Source of the DNA: a virus
Taxonomy: Duplodnaviria; Heunggongvirae; Uroviricota; Caudoviricetes
IMG/VR virus record: IMGVR_UViG_2802429219_000014
Length of the DNA stretch: 18,170 bases
Direction: 5' to 3' (one strand)
Position numbers and translations under genes: made by a program. Under the pieces are notes generated by a model. The model ran no database searches. It had not been told where the DNA came from and saw only the letters and a list, made by a program, of their open reading frames with translations. Shown here one piece after another: positions 1,532 through 18,090 of the stretch; position 1 is the stretch's first letter, and every line of letters starts with the position of its first letter.

Positions 1532-1741
1532 TTAATTTGAATACAATGCAATTCTCGAGGACTGAAGTTTCTCGCAATTAAAATTTATCAGTTTTACTTT
1601 CTGCTCTCTGGAAACGCCTGCTTCTTTTTTACCTGAGAGCATTTTTTTGCATTCTGATTTCGTTAGTTTAGATTTTGAATATCTTGTCCAGTTAGTAGGA
1701 GTGCCACATTCCTTTTCAATAGTGGCGGTAATTTTATACAT
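1532..1741 (-). CDS. ydaC: Rac prophage small protein YdaC-like (69 aa)
   Basis: ATG at 1741 preceded by a strong SD (GGAGGTG on the coding strand); overlaps the ralR 3' end by 8 nt; position matches K-12 Rac ydaC. Confidence 0.65.
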   Translation of the reverse strand: MYKITATIEKECGTPTNWTRYSKSKLTKSECKKMLSGKKEAGVSREQKVKLINFNCEKLQSSRIALYSN

Positions 1742-2794: not shown

Positions 2795-5387
2795 TTGCAT
2801 ATTCCTTAGCCCAGCGGGGCAGTGATAATGTCTTAATAGCTGGCCATTCATCGGTATTCAGGCAGTCAGACAGGGTTCGCAGATTGCGGTGATATTCCTG
2901 TTGACCTGCCAGTTTTGCTTCTTCGCCCATCATGAAAATTTCAACCGGATAACGTCCGCATTCAATAGTTGTGCTGGCAACCAGAAAAACGAAAGTTGGC
3001 TGCACTCCAAACTGTGCTTCATAACCGTCACTGTAGAATGCATCCTGAACGTGATAGCGGTAGTCGTAATAAGCGGTTTTGAATCGTTGAATATCCGCCG
3101 TAGTTTTCACGTCCATGATCCAGTGAAATTCAGGGATAATTTTGTCCGGACGGCACCGACACAAAATTCCTGTTTCAGGATCTTCCCAGTAAATTGATGA
3201 TTCAGCGTGTCCGGCGCTTTCAACAAGCCATTGCCCCAGCGGCAAAGCCATAACGCTTTGATACATGAGTTCAATTTTCCGGCCTTCTTCCGCAGTGATA
3301 ACCGTTTTTCCTGTGCTTGCGCATTCCATCAGAAACGCTTTCTCTTCTTCTTTTCCGGCGTTTGTACGGCGGTTAAATTCAGGTGCTACGATAAAGCGGT
3401 TACTGAATTCTTCCGGTTCAAGTACCCGGCAGTGGAAAGCGGTTCCTAAATCGAGCGTTTTTGTCTTTGTGGTGTCCACGGGGGCATTTTTACGCCACAA
3501 ATATAGTGCCGGAGTATCAGCAATGTCATCGAGCTGAGACTTACTGACACCGGGACCCGCGTGGTAATTCTCATTCGAAATTCCGTAATAAATACCTGGC
3601 TCTATGTCTTCTACGATTACGGGATCTGCGACTTCGCCAGTTTCATCACTGCAATCGCGATGCGGATCGCTGCCAGCATTCTCATTGTGCGGATGTTCAG
3701 CGCCTTCCATTTCCTCCGGATCATTTTCCTTAGCTTCAACCTGACTCTCTTCATCGAATGTTTCCTGGTATGTTGCGTCGCCCATCACCGCACCACAGTC
3801 AGGGCAGTTATCCCCGCCAGTCTGGCCGCAGGCATTGCAGGCTATTTCCGGTTCCTGTTGCACTACTGGCTCAGGTTGATTCATATCCGGGCTGGTTTTT
3901 TCCGTTTCTGGCTGGTTCTGGTACACAGAGTCGCGAGTCTGGATCCCCTTTACCCATTTCGGATCGTTCGGGTCGCTAATTCCGTCAACAAATTCACCAC
4001 GTGATGCAGCAAGCAATTTATCGGCATCGACAGGATCTTTTGATGGAATGTTTTTCCGGGCTTCATGGAGTTCTGCCCGCAGTTCCTGATATTTCGCATC
4101 AACAGAATTTACCTGTGACTGAGCATCCAGCGGCTGCGTGTCCTGATGATGTTCAGTTGCGTCCGGTTCCATTGTTTCAGCCTCTCCCTGTTCAACTGCC
4201 GTTGTTCCAGATGGTTGCGGTTTTTCTTCATCATCCTGTTTTCCTTCTTCTGTTACTCGCTGCGGCATCGGGGCAGAGGAGCGACCGCAGGCAATATCCA
4301 CGATTTCCGGATCAGGGTTGGCATGATCGGTTTCAGTCAGTACTTTGTTCAGATATTCAGTGACGTGCGCGGGGATGACCTCGATCCCAATTGGTGCTTC
4401 TTTTACGGACGCAACCACGATGGCGCGGGAATAATCCAGCCCGCCAGGCATGGTGATGAATTTGTCGCGGAAAACAGAAAAGGGCGGTTTATTTTCAGCG
4501 ATAATTTCCTCAATGCGTTTAGCGTGTGCCGGATGAAGGTTATAGATGTCCAGATCCATTGAACGGGCCAGTACGCCAGTGGCTACGTCGCGCGCCAGTG
4601 ACGTCAGATCGTGTACGAAACCTTCGCCGCGATCGGTGAGGTTTCCGCCGCCAGCATTAGCACCGGAAGCCGTGCGAGTGATGTGTGAAACACGATTACC
4701 CTTCATCCACTCTTTTGTCAGCAGTCCTCGATCGGTGTAGTCAGCGTTCAGGTATGCTTCGAAAAAAGCAGTTATCAGTCCCAGGTTTGAATTACCAGGA
4801 TTAGGGAAAACTTTGTCAGTGTCACGAACCAGTTTGTGGAGTTCGCGAATTTCCAGCGGGTCGAGCAGGCTGGTTTTGTGGGAAACAGCCAGGGCAGTAA
4901 CAGCCGGTAGTTCTTCAGCCCGAGCAATGTGTAATGCCTGGAGTCCGTCGCGTGAAACGTGCGTTACCGGTTTTTCGCTGCCGTGTTGAGCAAGCCAACG
5001 AATGGGCAGTTCCTGGCCAGAAATTGGGAGTAGCATATTCTCCTCAATCTCAGTCATGTCTTCGCCGTTGACGTTGGTATTGCCTTGATAGTGAGCGTTG
5101 TCTGGTGCTGCTCCCGGTTTTAGTTCCCATGTCATGGAGTCTTTGCTGAGTTGATAGCGTTCACTCCAGGTAAAATCGATCTCACCTTCAGCGGGCAGGT
5201 CATTAACGACAGGAAAATTCGTGGCAACAGCTTTAAAATAGCTGCTCAGTTTTTTACCTGACTTAACGATCAGGTAGTCCAGAGTGGCACAGGTCGATTC
5301 AAAATCGTTGCTTGCCCACAGGACGACGTCAGGTTCACCGGATGATTTTTTCGCTTTCCGTAACAGGAAGAGTGGTTTTGTGCTCAT
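2787..5387 (-). CDS. recE: RecE exonuclease VIII (866 aa)
   Basis: 866-aa ORF with acidic/Pro-rich central linker region and C-terminal nuclease domain; size and order match Rac recE. Confidence 0.9.
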
Positions 5388-5475: not shown

Positions 5476-5751
5476 TCAGATTTCACCTTTTAATTTCATT
5501 GCAATTAGAGTTGCCAGAAATTCGGCTTTTTTTTCTGCGGGCAGATTCTTTCCGATATGCACCAGGCACATTTTTTTGACACCTTCATCAAGTGTTTTTA
5601 CGTTGCCTGATGGACCATCGATATCAACCACAGTGAATGGGGTTTCTTTATTTTCTGTTTTAATTACGTAGCCAATGCGCTTTCCTTCCAGATTCACCTC
5701 GTGAACAATGTCATCGGTAGTTACAACAGTGGCTTCATAATTGGTAATCAT
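5476..5751 (-). CDS. racC: Rac prophage protein RacC-like (91 aa)
   Basis: ATG at 5751 preceded by SD GGAGAAAAAC; MITNYEATVVTTDD... recalled as RacC; position after recE. Confidence 0.75.
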   Translation of the reverse strand: MITNYEATVVTTDDIVHEVNLEGKRIGYVIKTENKETPFTVVDIDGPSGNVKTLDEGVKKMCLVHIGKNLPAEKKAEFLATLIAMKLKGEI

Positions 5752-5825
5752 GTTTTTCTCCTTAATTAAGGTTGAGCGAATACCTGCCATTTCTGGCATA
5801 AATTCAGTTTCGAATAGTCAATTAA

Positions 5826-5996
5826 TTAAAGTTCATGTGCCATCTGGTCTTTTTCGGCACAAGCTTCACTGCAATATTTTCTCGGTTCGTCTTTTGATAA
5901 AATCCCGTGCATGAAGTGAAGCATTCTTTCAATAGCTTTGCTTTCTTCAACGTCTTTTTTGCAAAGGTGGTAAGCACATTTTATTTTCTTAGTCAT
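5826..5996 (-). CDS. ydaE: Small Cys-rich protein YdaE-like (56 aa); below the 60-aa cutoff of the ORF track
   Basis: Hand translation of the reverse strand gives [56 protein letters not shown]; its ATG overlaps the kilR stop (ATGA). Confidence 0.7.
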   Translation of the reverse strand: MTKKIKCAYHLCKKDVEESKAIERMLHFMHGILSKDEPRKYCSEACAEKDQMAHEL

Positions 5997-6217
5997 CACC
6001 ATGACTCCGCCTTTACAGGTAAACCATCACGACCGAGGAAGACTTTAATCATGCGGTCAGTAATGCATGTTTTTGTGGTCAGGTTACGAATATATAGTTT
6101 TCGCTTTTTAATATTGTTTGCCGAGGCAATATATGTCCGGCCTTCATGAAGAACATAATCGCCAGGAGTCACACACTGACGTGGTATTTCATCAGTTCCG
6201 AAGTGATGTGCAATCAT
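5996..6217 (-). CDS. kilR: KilR-like cell-division inhibitor (73 aa)
   Basis: 73-aa form from the ATG at 6217 ([14 protein letters not shown]...); recalled as Rac KilR; translationally coupled to ydaE. Confidence 0.8.
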
Positions 6218-6658
6218 AATTATCTCCATTTTTACAAATGAACTTTGTTGATGCGGTGCCTGGTGCCTCCAGGTGACTGCAACCAGTTAACAATTACAGT
6301 CGGCTTTCCCACCCAAACCAATAAGGACTAACATGACTTTTAACTGTGCCACGTGCGCTTAGCCGCATTCATCGCATCACAAAATTCACTTTAAAAAGGG
6401 CGGACATCAGCCGAACTTCAAGAAAAAAACTGATGCCGCCAGGACTACACACAGCAATGTCGTTATTTACAACCGGAGGCGCACTCCCACCATTTAAATT
6501 TAACAGACAAGACCGACTCTTTATGGATATCGGAAATGCGCCTTCGTGTTGTGCCCGGTTTTATTTCACCACCTCCGGGCTTCGGTGGTCTCGGCTATAC
6601 CCCTACAGCGAGAGCTTGTGTTAACATTTCAATACCCTTACAGTTGAGAGTTATTGAT

Positions 6659-12657: not shown

Positions 12658-12833
12658 TGCTGCGGGTGCTTGAGGCTATCTGCCTCAGGCATGAACACCA
12701 AAAGGCAGATAGAGAAAAGCCCCAGTTAACATTACGCGTCCTGCAAGACGCTTAACATTAATCTGAGGCTCAATCTATGCTGAACACATGTAGGTTAGCC
12801 TCTTACGTGCCGAAAGGCAAGGAGAAGCAGGCT

Positions 12834-12989
12834 ATGAAGCAGCAAAAGGCGATGTTAATCGCCCTGATCGTCATCTGTTTAACCGTCATAGTGACGGCAC
12901 TGGTAACGAGGAAAGACCTCTGCGAGGTACGAATCCGAACCGGGCAGACGGAAGTCGCTGTCTTCACAGCTTACGAACCTGAGGAGTAA
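12834..12989 (+). CDS. hokD: Hok/Gef-family type I toxin (51 aa membrane peptide), HokD/RelF-like
   Basis: MKQQKAMLIALIVICLTVIVTALVTRKDLCEVRIRTGQTEVAVFTAYEPEE; single TM helix plus the conserved Hok C-terminal core; SD AAGGAG 9 nt before the ATG. Confidence 0.85.
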   Translation: MKQQKAMLIALIVICLTVIVTALVTRKDLCEVRIRTGQTEVAVFTAYEPEE

Positions 12990-13455: not shown

Positions 13456-14055
13456 ATGGCGCATATACAACTGGTCAAACAAACTTCTTCTGGTTTACTT
13501 CTCCCGGCGACGCCGGAGAGTTGCGATTTTCTGCATCAAATCAAAATAGGTGAGTGGATACACGCAGACTTTAAGCGTGTGCGTAACTACGCATTCCACA
13601 AGCGTTTTTTCAAACTCCTGCAACTGGGATTCGATTACTGGACTCCGGTCGGTGGGGCGATCACACCTCGCGAACGAGAAATGGTGTTCGGCTTCGTTGA
13701 TTACCTGTGTGAATCAGTAGGCAGGGAACATACGCCAGCTCTGAGTGATGCCGCGGAACAATATCTGAATACCGTTGCGACACGCAGAACCCGGGATATG
13801 GCATTGCTCAAATCATTTGACGCTTTCCGCGAGTGGGTAACCATTCAGGCCGGATTTTACACCGAGCATTTTTATCCTGATGGTAGTCGTGGGCGTCGGG
13901 CGAAATCCATCGCGTTTGCGAATATGGACGAAACCGAGTTTCAGCAGGTTTATAAATCTGTACTGAATGTGCTGTGGAACTGGATTCTGTTCCGTAAATT
14001 TTCCTCTCCGGAACAAGTCGAAAATGTGGCCGCGCAGCTACTGGAGTTTGCGTAA
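13456..14055 (+). CDS. Conserved phage nin-region protein (199 aa), possibly DUF1367 family
   Basis: 199-aa ORF; stop overlaps the start of the next gene (TAATG); family name is a low-certainty recollection. Confidence 0.6.
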   Translation: MAHIQLVKQTSSGLLLPATPESCDFLHQIKIGEWIHADFKRVRNYAFHKRFFKLLQLGFDYWTPVGGAITPREREMVFGFVDYLCESVGREHTPALSDAAEQYLNTVATRRTRDMALLKSFDAFREWVTIQAGFYTEHFYPDGSRGRRAKSIAFANMDETEFQQVYKSVLNVLWNWILFRKFSSPEQVENVAAQLLEFA

Positions 14056-14345
14056 TGGTGGATTTACGTAAAGCGGCGCGGGGCCAGATGTGCCAGGTCA
14101 GAATCCCTGGCTACTGCAATCACAATCCCGAAACTTCTGTGCTGGCGCATTACAGGTTGGCAGGGACGTGCGGAACAGCGACAAAACCACACGATATGCA
14201 GGCAGCGATTGCCTGTAACTCATGCCACGATTTAATCGACGGGCGGGTAAAAACCAGCGATTACACCAAAGAAGAATTACGCCTGATGCATGCAGAAGGT
14301 GTTTTTCGCACGCAAGAAATCTGGAGAAAGGAAGGTTATTTATGA
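14055..14345 (+). CDS. YbcO-like Cys-rich protein (96 aa, DUF1364-like putative Zn-binding nuclease)
   Basis: 96 aa with several Cys/His; same size and position (just before Q) as DLP12 YbcO. Confidence 0.65.
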   Translation: MVDLRKAARGQMCQVRIPGYCNHNPETSVLAHYRLAGTCGTATKPHDMQAAIACNSCHDLIDGRVKTSDYTKEELRLMHAEGVFRTQEIWRKEGYL

Positions 14346-14878
14346 TTTACCCAACAAATACAGGCAAAAGCGGGGAACACCTTCGTCTCACCACGCTGGA
14401 AAGTGTCTGGATTCAGGGAAAACTGCGCATGTGGGGGCGCTGGTCGTATATTGGCGGCGGTAAGACGGGGAATATGTTTAACCAGTTGCTGGCGTCAAAA
14501 AAATTGACGAAAACAGCCATCAATGAAGCCCTGCGCAGAATGAAAAAAGCGGGAATAGAGAAAGCTGAGCTGGAAGCGTTTTTGCGAGAGATGATCAACG
14601 GCAAGCAAAAGAGCTGGCTGGTGCATTGTACTGATGCAGAGGCACTAAAAATTGATAGTGTTATAGGTGAAGTTCTGGCGGATCATCCAGGACTACTAAA
14701 TGTCCTGAGTCAGCGTTATGTGGGGCGAGGGATGAGTAAGAGAAGGATGGCCGAGTTATTAAACGAACAGTACCCAGAGTGGGCGTTGATTACATGCCGA
14801 CGTCGTGTTGATCAGTGGTTGCGTGTTGCTGAGTTCATTTTGTATTCACCTATGAGAGAAGCGTTCGATTATGCTTAA
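14342..14878 (+). CDS. Putative late-gene antiterminator Q (178 aa, Q21/QuuD-like family)
   Basis: ATG at 14342 overlaps the preceding stop (ATGA); WGRWS motif near the N-terminus; last gene before the tRNA/lysis region. Confidence 0.55.
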   Translation: MIYPTNTGKSGEHLRLTTLESVWIQGKLRMWGRWSYIGGGKTGNMFNQLLASKKLTKTAINEALRRMKKAGIEKAELEAFLREMINGKQKSWLVHCTDAEALKIDSVIGEVLADHPGLLNVLSQRYVGRGMSKRRMAELLNEQYPEWALITCRRRVDQWLRVAEFILYSPMREAFDYA

Positions 14879-14885
14879 AAAATCA

Positions 14886-14914
14886 TTGCAAAATGAGCCA
14901 CAAACTGCTTCAAT
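14886..14914 (+). promoter_or_regulatory. Candidate late promoter pR'-like (TTGCAA-17-TTCAAT)
   Basis: Weak sigma70-like hexamers just after the Q stop; placement by analogy with lambdoid late promoters. Confidence 0.3.
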
Positions 14915-14973
14915 TTCGGTACGCTTCGCATAGCTGTATCGCGAGGCAAATTAAGCGCATGAACTTTAATACA

Positions 14974-15000
14974 ACCCGCCATTGAGCGGGTTTTGTTGTT
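14974..15000 (+). terminator. Intrinsic terminator, tR'-like (6-bp GC stem ACCCGC/GCGGGT, 6-nt loop, then TTTTGTTGTTT)
   Basis: Hairpin plus U-rich tract read in the sequence, about 60-100 nt downstream of the candidate pR'. Confidence 0.5.
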
Positions 15001-15133
15001 TCTGTGGCGTGATATCAGAAACGACATTTAATAATCGCCTTCAAAATAAATTTGTTTATACATTGTCATGTATATTTTAAGTGAAAGTGAATTATTCACA
15101 TAAAATAAAAACATATAAATAAATTTACATAAC

Positions 15134-15162
15134 TTGACGCAAAGTGTTGTTGCGATTGGAAT
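15134..15162 (+). promoter_or_regulatory. Candidate promoter upstream of the tRNA genes (TTGACG-17-TGGAAT)
   Basis: Hexamers read in the sequence about 80 nt upstream of tRNA-Thr; the -10 is weak. Confidence 0.3.
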
Positions 15163-15240
15163 ATTAAATCGTATCATCGAAAACGGTTCTGAGGGGGAAC
15201 TCTTCTTTGCTCGGTGATATCGCTCCCCTGAAGAACCAAT

Positions 15241-15316
<76 letters not shown>

Positions 15317-15319
15317 TAT

Positions 15320-15394
<75 letters not shown>

Positions 15395-15755
15395 GCATTT
15401 GAAACAAGCCTTATTGTATTGCGGCACTGGCGTATTTTTTTATTACGTGGGAGCAGGTTGTTTTGAAAAAGCATTCTGTTCTCTGGCTATGATTTGAGGC
15501 CGGGTGTAGCCTCAGTGCTGATTTTTTACGGCAGCAGAATGGTGCATTATCGGTGGAGATTTTGTATTTCCTGGCAGGGTCGGTGATGCATCATTCTGGT
15601 GTTGTAAAAGCACCGCAGAGGCGTTCCTCAGGGCGAGGGTGGTTTAAAGAGTCGGTTTAGCGGGAAACCACAGTATCCATACGGCACGGAATACTTCGGG
15701 AGGCACCCGACGCCTCGGTTTTATAACAATTAAATAATTCATCCCTTAATTGACC

Positions 15756-15782
15756 AACCGCCGTATCAGGCGGTTTTTTTTA
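15756..15782 (+). terminator. Strong intrinsic terminator (AACCGCC-GTATCA-GGCGGTT followed by eight or more T)
   Basis: GC-rich hairpin immediately followed by a long T tract, read in the sequence. Confidence 0.65.
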
Positions 15783-15790
15783 TTCTTAAT

Positions 15791-15827
15791 TCGAAAAAAG
15801 AAAACACGGACACTGATAATGTCCGTG
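15791..15827 (-). terminator. Reverse-strand intrinsic terminator (8-bp stem CACGGACA/TGTCCGTG, followed on the minus strand by TTTTCTTTTTTCG)
   Basis: Perfect 8-bp hairpin with a U-rich tract on the minus strand; back to back with the plus-strand terminator. Confidence 0.5.
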
Positions 15828-16166
15828 CGGCAATGCCATGTAAGTCAGTGATGAATATGGCGCAAAAAAAGCGCGGCTGTCGGATTAACGCCGCGGGACA
15901 AAGTCCGTGAAGAAGAATAAGTATCGGTCTCCTTCCGGAGACGAGTTGATATTACTAAGCTTTAAAAATGGTTTAAATCCTCAGATTAACCTTAATTTCA
16001 GATAAGGTTTATTTCATTTTCTCCGCGTCACATCCGACGCACATCACATCAGATAACACCACACAAAAGGCATCTGCGGGTGTCTTTGACGGGGTGTTTT
16101 TTACGGGCCGCTGGTGGCCATTTTTTGTTTCCATTACACAGCGCCCGCATCTGCGAGGTGGGGGTT

Positions 16167-16382
16167 ATGAAATCCATGGATAAGTTAACAACGGGTGTCG
16201 CCTATGGCACCTCCGCAGGCAGTGCTGGCTACTGGTTTTTACAGTTGCTCGATAGAGTAACTCCGTCACAGTGGGCTGCAATCGGTGTGCTGGGTAGTCT
16301 GGTATTTGGCTTGCTGACGTACCTGACAAACCTTTATTTCAAGATTAAAGAAGACAAGCGTAAGGTTGCACGGGGAGAGTAA
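16167..16382 (+). CDS. Class II pinholin with dual start (MKSM...; 71/68 aa), phage 21 S-like
   Basis: SD GAGGTGGGGG before the ATG; dual-start Met-Lys-Ser-Met motif; two TM segments; aligns from memory with S21. Confidence 0.85.
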
Positions 16383-16386
16383 TTCA

Positions 16387-16731
16387 ATGACACAAAACTA
16401 TGAACTGATTGTGAAAGGGATCCGCAATTTTGAGAATAAAGTTGCGGTAACTGTAGCATTAAGGGACAAAAAACGCTTTGACAGTGAAATTTTTGACCTG
16501 GACATCTCGCTGGACCGTGTTGAAGGTGCCGCGCTGGAGTTTTATGAGGCAGCAGCCAGAAGGAGCATCAGACAGGTCTTCCTGGAAGTTGCAGCCGGGT
16601 TATGTGAAGGGGATGAGCAGTCGCCGGAAAAGCGCCCCGTAATTTTAGAGGCGCAGAATGTGTGGATAACCTACAAAGGAAAGCTACCAGGAAGAATTAC
16701 TGATTCTCTGAAGACTCCACCGAAATGGTAA
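16387..16731 (+). CDS. Hypothetical protein (114 aa) between holin and endolysin, possibly YdfR/DUF1327-like
   Basis: SD GGGGAGAG before the ATG, 4 nt after the holin stop; K-12 Qin carries ydfR in the equivalent position. Confidence 0.55.
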   Translation: MTQNYELIVKGIRNFENKVAVTVALRDKKRFDSEIFDLDISLDRVEGAALEFYEAAARRSIRQVFLEVAAGLCEGDEQSPEKRPVILEAQNVWITYKGKLPGRITDSLKTPPKW

Positions 16732-16969
16732 TTTTACCAGCATATTTTTCTTCCAGTAATGCCGCCAGCCACTTGAAAGAATTTTGTTGTTCCTGGGACC
16801 ATTTGGGGTTGCGTGATTCAAGCAGGAGCGATGCCAGTGTTGGTTGCATTTGTTCTCTGGGAATTGATAAGGCCAAATATGAAAATGCAACAGTGAGGGC
16901 ATTTACATCATCCCGAAGCTTTGAAATGCAGTCGAGCAACTCCTGTAGAGAAATGGTGTTATTGTCCAT
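16697..16969 (-). CDS. Candidate reverse-strand hypothetical protein (90 aa) inside the lysis cassette
   Basis: Good SD (AAGAGGA, 6-nt spacer) before the ATG at 16969; helical-looking composition; 3' end overlaps the preceding plus-strand gene by 35 nt. Confidence 0.35.
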   Translation of the reverse strand: MDNNTISLQELLDCISKLRDDVNALTVAFSYLALSIPREQMQPTLASLLLESRNPKWSQEQQNSFKWLAALLEEKYAGKITISVESSENQ

Positions 16970-17074
16970 AAATAATCCTCTTGATTGTCTTTACCTTTTC
17001 CCCGCCTGATTCAACAGGCCAGGACAGATAAACATGTCCAGGGTTCAGAAACCGATAAATCCTGATAAATATCC

Positions 17075-17608
17075 ATGAACGCAAGAATCAAATACGGCCT
17101 GTCAGCGGCCGTTCTGGCGCTGATTGGAGCAGGCGCATCTGCTCCTGAGATACTTGACCAGTTTCTGGATGAAAAAGAGGGTAACCACACTACGGCATAC
17201 CGCGATGGTTCCGGCATATGGACCATCTGTCGAGGGGCCACGATGGTGGATGGTAAACCTGTTATTCCTGGCATGAAACTGACGAAGGAAAAATGCGATC
17301 AGGTTAATGCCATTGAACGGGATAAGGCACTGGCATGGGTGGAGCGCAATATTAAAGTGCCACTGACCGAACCACAGAAAGCGGGTATAGCGTCATTTTG
17401 CCCCTATAACATTGGCCCCGGTAAGTGTTTCCCGTCGACGTTTTATAAGCGGCTGAATGCAGGTGATCGTAAAGGTGCCTGCGAGGCGATTCGCTGGTGG
17501 ATTAAGGACAGGGGGCGCGATTGCCGCCTTCGTTCAAATAACTGTTACGGTCAGGTTATTCGTCGTGATCAGGAGAGCGCATTAGCCTGTTGGGGGATAG
17601 ATCAGTGA
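17075..17608 (+). CDS. SAR endolysin (177 aa, T4-lysozyme fold, GH24-like), phage 21 R-like
   Basis: N-terminal Gly/Ala-rich weakly hydrophobic signal-anchor-release segment ([18 protein letters not shown]) followed by an E...D...T catalytic region. Confidence 0.9.
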
Positions 17609-18090
17609 GCAAAGTCACTGCGATTATTTCCGTTTTGATTATCTGTATCATCGTTTGCCTGTCATGGGCTGTTAATCATTACCGTGATAATGCCATTACC
17701 TACAAAGCACAACGCGATAATGTGACGGAAAAACTCAACCAGGCGACCGCAATCATTACTGACATGCAGATACGCCAGCGTGATGTTGCTGCACTCGATG
17801 CAAAATACCTGAAGGAGTTAGCTGATGCGAAAGCTGAAAATGATGCTCTGCGTGATGATGTTGCCGCTGGTCGTCGTCGGTTGCACATCAAAGCAGTCTG
17901 TCCGTCCGTGCGTGAAGCCACCATCGCCTCCAGCGTGGATAATGCAGTCTCCCCCAGACTGGCAGACACCGCTGAACGGGATTATTTCACCCTCCGGGAA
18001 CGACTGGTAATGATGCAGGCCCAACTTGAAGGTGCTCAGCAATTGAGCTGGCCCCCTGAAATACCAGACAGTAGATGTATCTTAAAATAA
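17605..18090 (+). CDS. Rz i-spanin (161 aa, GTG start overlapping the endolysin stop)
   Basis: N-terminal TM segment plus coiled-coil region; aligns from memory with lambda Rz apart from the last ~15 residues. Confidence 0.8.
17825..18010 (+). CDS. Rz1 o-spanin lipoprotein (61 aa), embedded in the +1 frame of Rz
   Basis: Lipobox LVVVGC after a signal peptide; Pro-rich mature part; wholly contained within Rz. Confidence 0.85.

Follow-up and report, generated by a model that had tools for sequence, protein, structure and literature searches.

What is the function of the short promoter-terminator unit that lies in the gap between a DUF1133 gene and two tRNA genes in a Rac-like lambdoid prophage? 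The prophage was recognised from Pfam, Rfam, ARAGORN and the ORF list over the whole stretch of DNA analysed, which is 18,170 nt long and is called the window hereafter. A sequence-only reading had described in it a promoter-terminator unit directly after a Q gene. The unit is real and its elements are located as that reading described them; comparison with about 150 related loci refines the identity of both the gene and the promoter. The explanation favoured here is that positions 14886-15003 very probably constitute the late regulatory cassette (pR'-QBE-pause-tR') of a Q protein of the DUF1133 family, as judged from the sequences of the unit and of its relatives. The features on which the argument draws are collected in Table 1.

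Table 1. Features of the prophage and of the promoter-terminator unit (window coordinates).
Feature	Position	Strand	Evidence or remark
RalA antitoxin sRNA	1557-1735		218 bits; typical of Rac-like prophages
hok/sok module	12664-12839		120 bits; typical of Rac-like prophages
DUF1367 gene, nin-like block	13456-14055		
YbcO gene, nin-like block	14055-14345		
Q-like antiterminator gene, DUF1133 family, 178 aa, nin-like block	14342-14878	+	Pfam
-35 element TTGCAA	14886-14891	+	A tract 14877-14882 just 5'
Putative Q-binding element, single TGAGCC subsite in the promoter spacer	14894-14899	+	Comparison with phage 21; covariation
Extended -10, TGc TTCAAT	14906-14914	+	TG 14906-14907; hexamer 14909-14914; 17-nt spacer from the -35
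-10-like sigma-dependent pause element TACGCT (predicted)	14920-14925	+	T-12, A-11 and T-7 present
Predicted transcription start A14921	14919-14922 (range)	+	
Conserved transcript start past the pause element	14923-14947	+	Second -10-like hexamer and predicted 5' RNA hairpin
Intrinsic terminator tR'	14973-15003	+	Stem-loop AACCCGC-CATTGA-GCGGGTT 14973-14992; T tract TTTTGTTGTTTCT
tRNA-Thr(TGT) and tRNA-Gly(TCC), between tR' and the lysis genes	15241-15394	+	ARAGORN, Rfam
Further strong intrinsic terminator	15756-15783	+	Terminator scan; the late transcript must cross it
Weaker terminator candidates	15494, 15700, 16106	+	Terminator scan
Late lysis genes: P21-type holin, DUF1327, lysozyme, Rz	16080-18090	+	Pfam

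The DUF1133 gene starts with an ATG that overlaps the ybcO stop codon, and it ends 7 nt before the -35 element, on the same strand. The same ORF is annotated by RefSeq in locus L001, and DUF1133 genes are labelled there as being of unknown function. The window protein scores 338.8 bits (E 6e-102) against Pfam DUF1133 and 27.6 bits, for a cut-off of 26, against PF06530, the Q21/Q933W family, so that the DUF1133 model is far better. Several comparisons nevertheless point to phage 21 Q: a phmmer search of the window protein against PDB sequences returns phage 21 Q (6P18, 6JNX) as its sole match (E 2e-4); a DUF1133-only profile, built from twelve DUF1133 proteins, matches the solved phage 21 Q structure (6P18/6JNX) over residues 95-178 with an E-value of 1.2e-9; and tblastn relates the window protein to a P22-like “antitermination protein Q” with 26% identity over 92% of its length. 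The recognition helix of the window protein reads ...ALITCRRRVDQWL, and its ITCRRRV segment aligns with ATCRREV of Q21. The residues of Q21 that contact the QBE are A124, T125, R127 and R128 (Shi et al., PMC6606751); in the phmmer alignment they fall on the I-T-C-R-R of the window protein. Q21 folds as a sigma-R4-like helical bundle; a single-sequence AlphaFold model of the window protein was too poor for a structure search (pLDDT 37.6). In the papers found, the link between DUF1133 and antitermination amounts to a table entry. On the basis of these alignments, the window DUF1133 protein is a remote homologue of phage 21 Q. The initial identification of the preceding gene as Q is thus right as to homology (profile E 1.2e-9) and has to be amended as to family, the gene being a DUF1133 member and no classical Q.

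Read from the stop codon of this gene, the unit is TAA AAAATCA TTGCAA AA TGAGCC ACAAACTGC TTCAAT TTCGG TACGCT TCGCATAGCTGTATCGCGAGGC, and 25 nt past the latter segment comes AACCCGC CATTGA GCGGGTT TTTTGTTGTTTCT. The -10 hexamer carries a T, not an A, at -11 (hexamer position 2), a position at which A is normally critical. The description of the promoter as weak therefore holds for its -10, and has to be qualified in that this is a conserved promoter with an extended -10. Assigning the -10 to TACGCT, or moving it to another register, was tried and rejected, as these choices leave either no usable -35 or a variable base at -11. Ten bp after the first -10-like hexamer, TACGCT, a second one, ATAGCT, is found at 14930-14935; it is AAAGCT or GAAGCT in most relatives. 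Folding predicts a 5' RNA hairpin over the conserved transcript start. The terminator, located ~50-80 nt downstream, has a stem of 7 pairs, 5 of them G-C, according to the consensus scan. The GC hairpin and T tract had been placed at 14974-15000; the stem begins one base earlier and the T tract extends to about 15003. The 80-nt transcript as a whole folds with -25.6 kcal/mol (z -2.29). No Rfam family is found at the unit at gathering score, and the leader and sRNA matches that appear at E up to 10 are at chance level.

Motif strength alone does not set this unit apart. The consensus scan counts 28 promoter-like sites in the window for 26.7 +/- 6.6 expected, and 27 terminator-like sites for 19.7 +/- 6.0 expected; with counts at chance level, the unit is no better than chance by this measure. 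Its promoter fails the rule of the scan, because position 2 of TTCAAT is T and not A. A regular expression describing the layout has one match in the window, at 14886, and since ~0.8 are expected by chance, this single match is by itself no evidence. What lifts the unit above chance is that TTG, the spacing, TGCTTCAAT, the transcript start and the terminator are kept across variants.

With megablast, the query 14860-15240 matches 505 of 5426 complete E. coli genomes (~9%), and many of the matches cover only the unit's core, about 14899-15004. When IMG/VR was scanned for an exact pattern that included 26 nt of the transcribed region, 101 loci were recovered. The 106 instances compared fall into more than 50 sequence variants, all of which preserve the TTG with its 17-nt spacing, the extended -10, the transcript start and a terminator. 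What these variants have in common is the A tract, the TTG, a spacer of 17 nt that ends in AAACTGC, and TTCAAT, after which come six variable bases. In the same 106 instances, the invariant block begins exactly at the predicted start site, the middle of the transcribed region varies, and the terminator may differ wholly. To note, 14923-14947 is invariant among the E. coli variants, but 26 nt of that block were imposed by the search pattern. Q-anchored loci (L112, L115-L117, L120, L139, L141) share the conserved transcript start, as do Providencia and Edwardsiella phages.

The position of the unit relative to Q is informative as well. All 93 loci with enough upstream DNA have a DUF1133 gene 5' of the unit and in the same orientation. 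The distance from the Q stop codon to the -35 element is -2 to +11 nt in 57 of them and 836-1249 nt in the other 36. In these 36 loci the intervening DNA is an insert that comprises an isrK / c4-a1b1 / C4 antisense RNA module and an ORF6N antirepressor gene, in the manner of P1 immI. This arrangement matches the Gifsy-1 order antQ-isrK-orf45-anrP-isrJ (PMC4825925). The TTG of the -35 is invariant at its spacing in all variants, whether the end of Q or that of the ORF6N gene precedes it. The unit thus shifts as a block with its own promoter, which argues against a mere terminator of the Q operon. Individual examples of the P1-immI-like insert between a DUF1133 Q and the late promoter were noted in L003 (2141-2976), L004 (2142-3004), L028, L113 and L117. 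In L003, a TTGACT-18-TATATT promoter with a terminator right after Q was considered as the true pR' and dismissed, as it is the isrK/c4 promoter of the insert.

The survey was then widened by a protein-anchored scan with one genome per species, which gave 46 loci across Enterobacterales, and by phage records from Klebsiella, Providencia, Edwardsiella and Rac-SA53. Almost all of the ~150 DUF1133 and Q21-family loci share one layout, in which 2-4 nt lie between TTGNNN and a hexamer and 20 nt between this hexamer and TANGCT, with a terminator downstream. Among loci searched with that pattern, the 20-nt distance between hexamer and TANGCT is constant in both Q families. The few loci missed by the pattern have the same layout with another -35 spacing or with TATAGT as the pause element. 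The 150 units use 54 distinct hairpins, most of which end 60-90 nt after the pause element, and in distant loci unrelated hairpins substitute for the terminator at equal distance. The promoters of some distant relatives approach the consensus: TTGACA-16-TAGTAT in Edwardsiella and TTGACT-16-TATAGT in Providencia, both with the -10 two bases further upstream, and TTGATT-17-TATCTT in Rac-SA53, with the -10 in the register of the window. These near-consensus promoters support the promoter assignment of the weaker E. coli version. At Klebsiella/Enterobacter-type loci (L108 2040-2080; L119-L132), the Q reading frame spans the -35 and the Q-binding hexamer and runs into the -10; its stop codon TGA lies inside TTGAAT, so that the C-terminal codons of Q overlap its own DNA target. 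Two further records contain Q gene versions that are 82-87% identical and near those of E. coli, although they are assigned to unrelated hosts (L118, a MAG labelled “Candidatus Nanosynbacter”, and H65, “Actinobacillus phage vB_Apl-pPE4”); contamination or mis-binning is probably involved.

The hexamer between the -35 and the -10 covaries with the recognition helix of the Q protein encoded upstream (Table 2). When helix residue 4 is R, position 2 of the hexamer is G (TGnnnn), in 5 of 5 helix types; when it is N, K, S, T or D, position 2 is T (TTnnnn), in 13 of 13 helix types. This rule has no exception and is common to both Pfam families. It applies equally to the 37 loci that have the cassette between Q and the unit (15 TCCSR, 21 TCRNR and 1 TCRRR). 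Physical linkage and clonal descent inflate the covariation counts, which therefore give strong support, short of proof, to the view that the hexamer at 14894-14899 is the Q-binding element matched to the Q allele.

Table 2. Recognition-helix types and the hexamers found with them in the promoter spacer.
Helix type	Hexamers
TCRRR	TGAGCC, TGAGCA, TGAACC
TCRRE (Q21 family)	TGAGCA, TGGCCA, TGACCA
TCQRR	TGACCG, TGTCCA
TCRNR	TTAGCC, TTGCCA, TTACCA
TCRNE (Q21 family)	TTAGCC
TCEKR	TTACGC, TTACGT
TCCSR	TTGCAC
TCE[NST]R	TTGCGC
TCKNR	TTGCCC
TCQNR	TTGCCG
T[HY]Q[ND]R	TTACCG, TTGCCG

The late cassette of phage 21 and of P22-type phages is among the closest known systems. In phage 21, the QBE consists of two TGAGCA hexamers in direct repeat whose C:G pairs, at -21 and -13, fall between the two promoter elements; a -10-like element is present in the initially transcribed region, and the polymerase backtracks to +14 (PMC6606751). 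A pR'21-like promoter in the P22-like phage SF11 (L111) reads TTGACA TCAA TGAGCA AA TGAGCA ATCAT AAGCGAA TAAGCT. When it is numbered by the published C positions, its -10 is AATCAT, its start is an A and TAAGCT occupies +2 to +7, which fits the published pause at +14. Alignment with known Q binding and pause sites had been suggested as a check of the unit, and its outcome is positive: TGAGCC of the window resembles TGAGCA, both being located in the promoter spacer, TACGCT resembles TAAGCT, and the offset between the two elements is 26 bp in each case (TGAGCC to TACGCT in the window, subsite 1 to TAAGCT in L111). Furthermore, the Q proteins are homologous with an almost identical recognition helix, a terminator follows within ~80 nt, and lysis genes lie downstream in both. 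The suggestion that a Q antiterminator acts on this pR'/tR'-like unit thus draws support from homology, hexamer covariation, pause-element geometry and layout, from which its function is predicted.

The two cassettes also differ. The window Q is ~30% identical to Q21-type proteins and has ~40-50 extra residues in its first half. Phage 21 has two direct-repeat subsites spaced by 8 bp, while the window has one: 8 bp downstream, where a second subsite would be expected, all E. coli variants have AAACTG with any helix type, a sequence that contains the TG of the extended -10. With a single hexamer, loading of Q in the window may differ from that of phage 21, and a single-subsite QBE is a possible variation on the phage 21 theme. 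The distance from the -35 to the hexamer is 4 nt in phage 21 and 2 nt in the window; that from the -10 to the pause element is 7 nt in phage 21 and 5 nt after the extended TGn-TTCAAT of the window. As a result of the latter spacing, TACGCT overlaps the predicted start (-1 to +5 if transcription starts at A14921) and the paused RNA would be ~11 nt long; in lambda and 21 the pause element is 1-2 nt further from the start. As an observation in its own right, the spacing between the -35 hexamer (TTGCAA or TTGCAT) and the Q-binding hexamer 3' of it is exactly 8 bp (window 14886-14899; L003 ~2983-3003), and the -35 hexamer resembles the hexamers of the TT type (TTGCAT TT TTGCAC). It could be a second, upstream Q subsite.

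Together with homology and covariation, the anatomy of the sequence leads us to infer the start site, the pause, the termination and the dependence on Q, and the homology with phage 21 is the basis of the mechanism proposed. RNA polymerase would start near A14921, from what is probably a sigma-70 promoter; sigma region 2 would re-bind TACGCT at 14920-14925, and the polymerase would pause with an RNA of ~11-17 nt. Without Q, it would resume and terminate at 14993-15003, giving an RNA of 75-80 nt. Once the DUF1133 protein accumulates, its helix-turn(loop)-helix (ITCRRRV) would bind TGAGCC beside the paused polymerase. Q would then be loaded on the polymerase, which would read through tR' and later terminators into the tRNA and holin-lysozyme-Rz genes.

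Other explanations of the unit have to be weighed against this one. It might be a free-standing sRNA gene, in which a constitutive promoter makes a 75-80 nt Hfq-type sRNA that has the targeting of host or phage mRNAs in trans as its main or only function, the position after Q being incidental or secondary. Conservation over the first 27 nt of the transcript indeed goes far beyond the need of a 6-nt pause element, the RNA combines a 5' hairpin with a terminator and U tail (z -2.29), and there is a precedent in StxS (PMC7547250), with IsrJ of Gifsy-1 perhaps another (PMC4825925). Such a gene would, however, leave unexplained both the covariation of hexamer and helix and the fixed 26-bp geometry between hexamer and TANGCT. 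Moreover, the variants freely swap the terminator and the central part of the RNA (~+28 to +50), and no Rfam family matches the unit even at E up to 10. As a trans-acting RNA and a switch can coexist, what is deemed unlikely is the sRNA role as the main or only one.

The late cassette of the DUF1133 Q also has to be distinguished from a plain end of the early operon. The hairpin could be the terminator of the delayed-early (nin/Q) operon and the promoter a chance match, with the late genes expressed from a promoter further 3', for example within 15132-15177. The last early gene commonly ends in a terminator, promoter-like matches in the window are at chance level, the promoter of the unit fails the scan, and a TTGCGA-16-TATCAT match is available at 15150-15177. 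Yet the surroundings change while TTG, its 17-nt spacing and the TG-extended -10 are kept, and in 36 loci the whole unit lies beyond the isrK/C4-antirepressor cassette, where it does not follow Q. In the distant relatives, promoters close to the consensus occupy the same register, and the covariation with Q speaks against chance; an operon terminator is thus a very improbable explanation. Hardly credible, finally, is a conserved block that encodes a small protein or forms a protein-binding or recombination site unrelated to the control of transcription. An ATG-initiated minus-strand ORF of 50 aa does exist at 14875-15027, but neither it nor the minus-strand ORF at 15028-15177 has a Pfam match; the variants differ by a 2-nt indel and by replaced segments that would shift the frame, and the conservation follows the logic of a promoter and terminator, not that of codons.

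The proposed switch of the DUF1133 Q has further parallels. The lambda pR'-qut-tR' unit, source of the 6S RNA, and the StxS unit follow the same logic, with a promoter right after Q and a start-proximal sigma-dependent pause. There, early termination yields a short RNA in lysogens and Q-dependent read-through reaches the late genes, as is proposed here; tRNA or toxin genes can sit between the terminator and the late genes, as the tRNA genes do in the window. StxS is the pR'-tR' transcript of Stx phages, 258 nt long and processed to 74 nt, and it is an sRNA with trans functions (PMC7547250). It has been detected experimentally at a position equivalent to that of the window unit, as has IsrJ (below), and both RNAs speak for the late-cassette explanation. 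Conversely, neither the lambda nor the StxS unit has sequence similarity to the window unit; lambda Q (PF03589), which requires a -35-like element as well, shows no relationship in either sequence or fold, and its short RNA measures 194 nt as compared to the 75-80 nt predicted for the window.

Another parallel, in size and position, is IsrJ of Gifsy-1, an experimentally detected RNA (PMC4825925). The Rfam isrJ model (RF01393) is found in Gifsy-1 (L158, NC_010392) at 33480-33406 on the minus strand with 100 bits. There, TTGCAA-17-TATATT directly follows anrP and is itself followed by a terminator, a tRNA-Arg gene and lysis genes (33406-33520, minus strand). The Gifsy-1 Q (STM2617, AntQ) is phage-82-like and not a DUF1133 protein. 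Because of its position and promoter, IsrJ looks like the pR'-tR' short transcript of this 82-like AntQ. Like the window unit, it is located after Q or the isrK/C4-antirepressor cassette and before tRNA and lysis genes; its RNA (74-75 nt) is of the same size class as the one predicted for the window, with its own promoter and an intrinsic terminator. Homology of the two units was considered and rejected: the isrJ model has no match at E up to 10 in window 14800-15260 or in L117 4800-5650, and the Gifsy-1 Q is of the 82 type. IsrJ is therefore an analogue of the window unit and not a homologue. To note, the Salmonella locus L117 carries a window-type unit after its antirepressor gene.

The switch mechanism is the textbook Q paradigm and its conceptual novelty is hence modest; the DUF1133 Q family itself is poorly studied. 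DUF1133 genes occupy the Q position in many Rac-like and other lambdoid prophages, and the same gene position is found in prophages with LT-II/pertussis-like toxins such as Rac-SA53; thirteen Stx-phage proteins are listed as DUF1133 (PMC8136144). The positions of the cognate late promoter, hexamer, pause element and terminator would indicate where toxin and lysis expression is switched on. The covariation provides a testable rule of protein-DNA recognition for the Q21 superfamily, and the unit is predicted to produce an abundant short RNA in lysogens. A broader and tentative proposal is that DUF1133 might represent a fourth, widespread branch of Q with single-subsite loading, perhaps by one protomer or with the TTGCAx -35 as second subsite, and with a residue-4 code in which R or non-R specifies G or T at position 2 of the subsite; in addition, the conserved 27-nt 5' end might serve as a trans-acting sRNA in lysogens, like StxS.

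Some further observations concern the DNA between the unit and the lysis genes. Just 5' of the tRNA-Thr and tRNA-Gly genes, 15020-15240 is AT-rich and contains promoter-like matches, TTGACG at 15132 besides the TTGCGA-16-TATCAT mentioned above; besides late read-through, a promoter of their own may serve the tRNA genes. The following ~690 nt (15395-16080) are devoid of plus-strand ORFs of at least 40 aa, several terminator-like sites precede the holin gene, and a minus-strand terminator-like site lies at 15828 within this ORF-poor stretch. In other prophages the interval between the late promoter unit and the lysis genes is occupied by pertussis-like toxin genes (eplBA and an ArtA-like ORF), at 3492-4723 in L106 (Rac-SA53) and at 5628-6392 in the Salmonella locus L117; Shiga toxin genes occupy the equivalent position in Stx phages.
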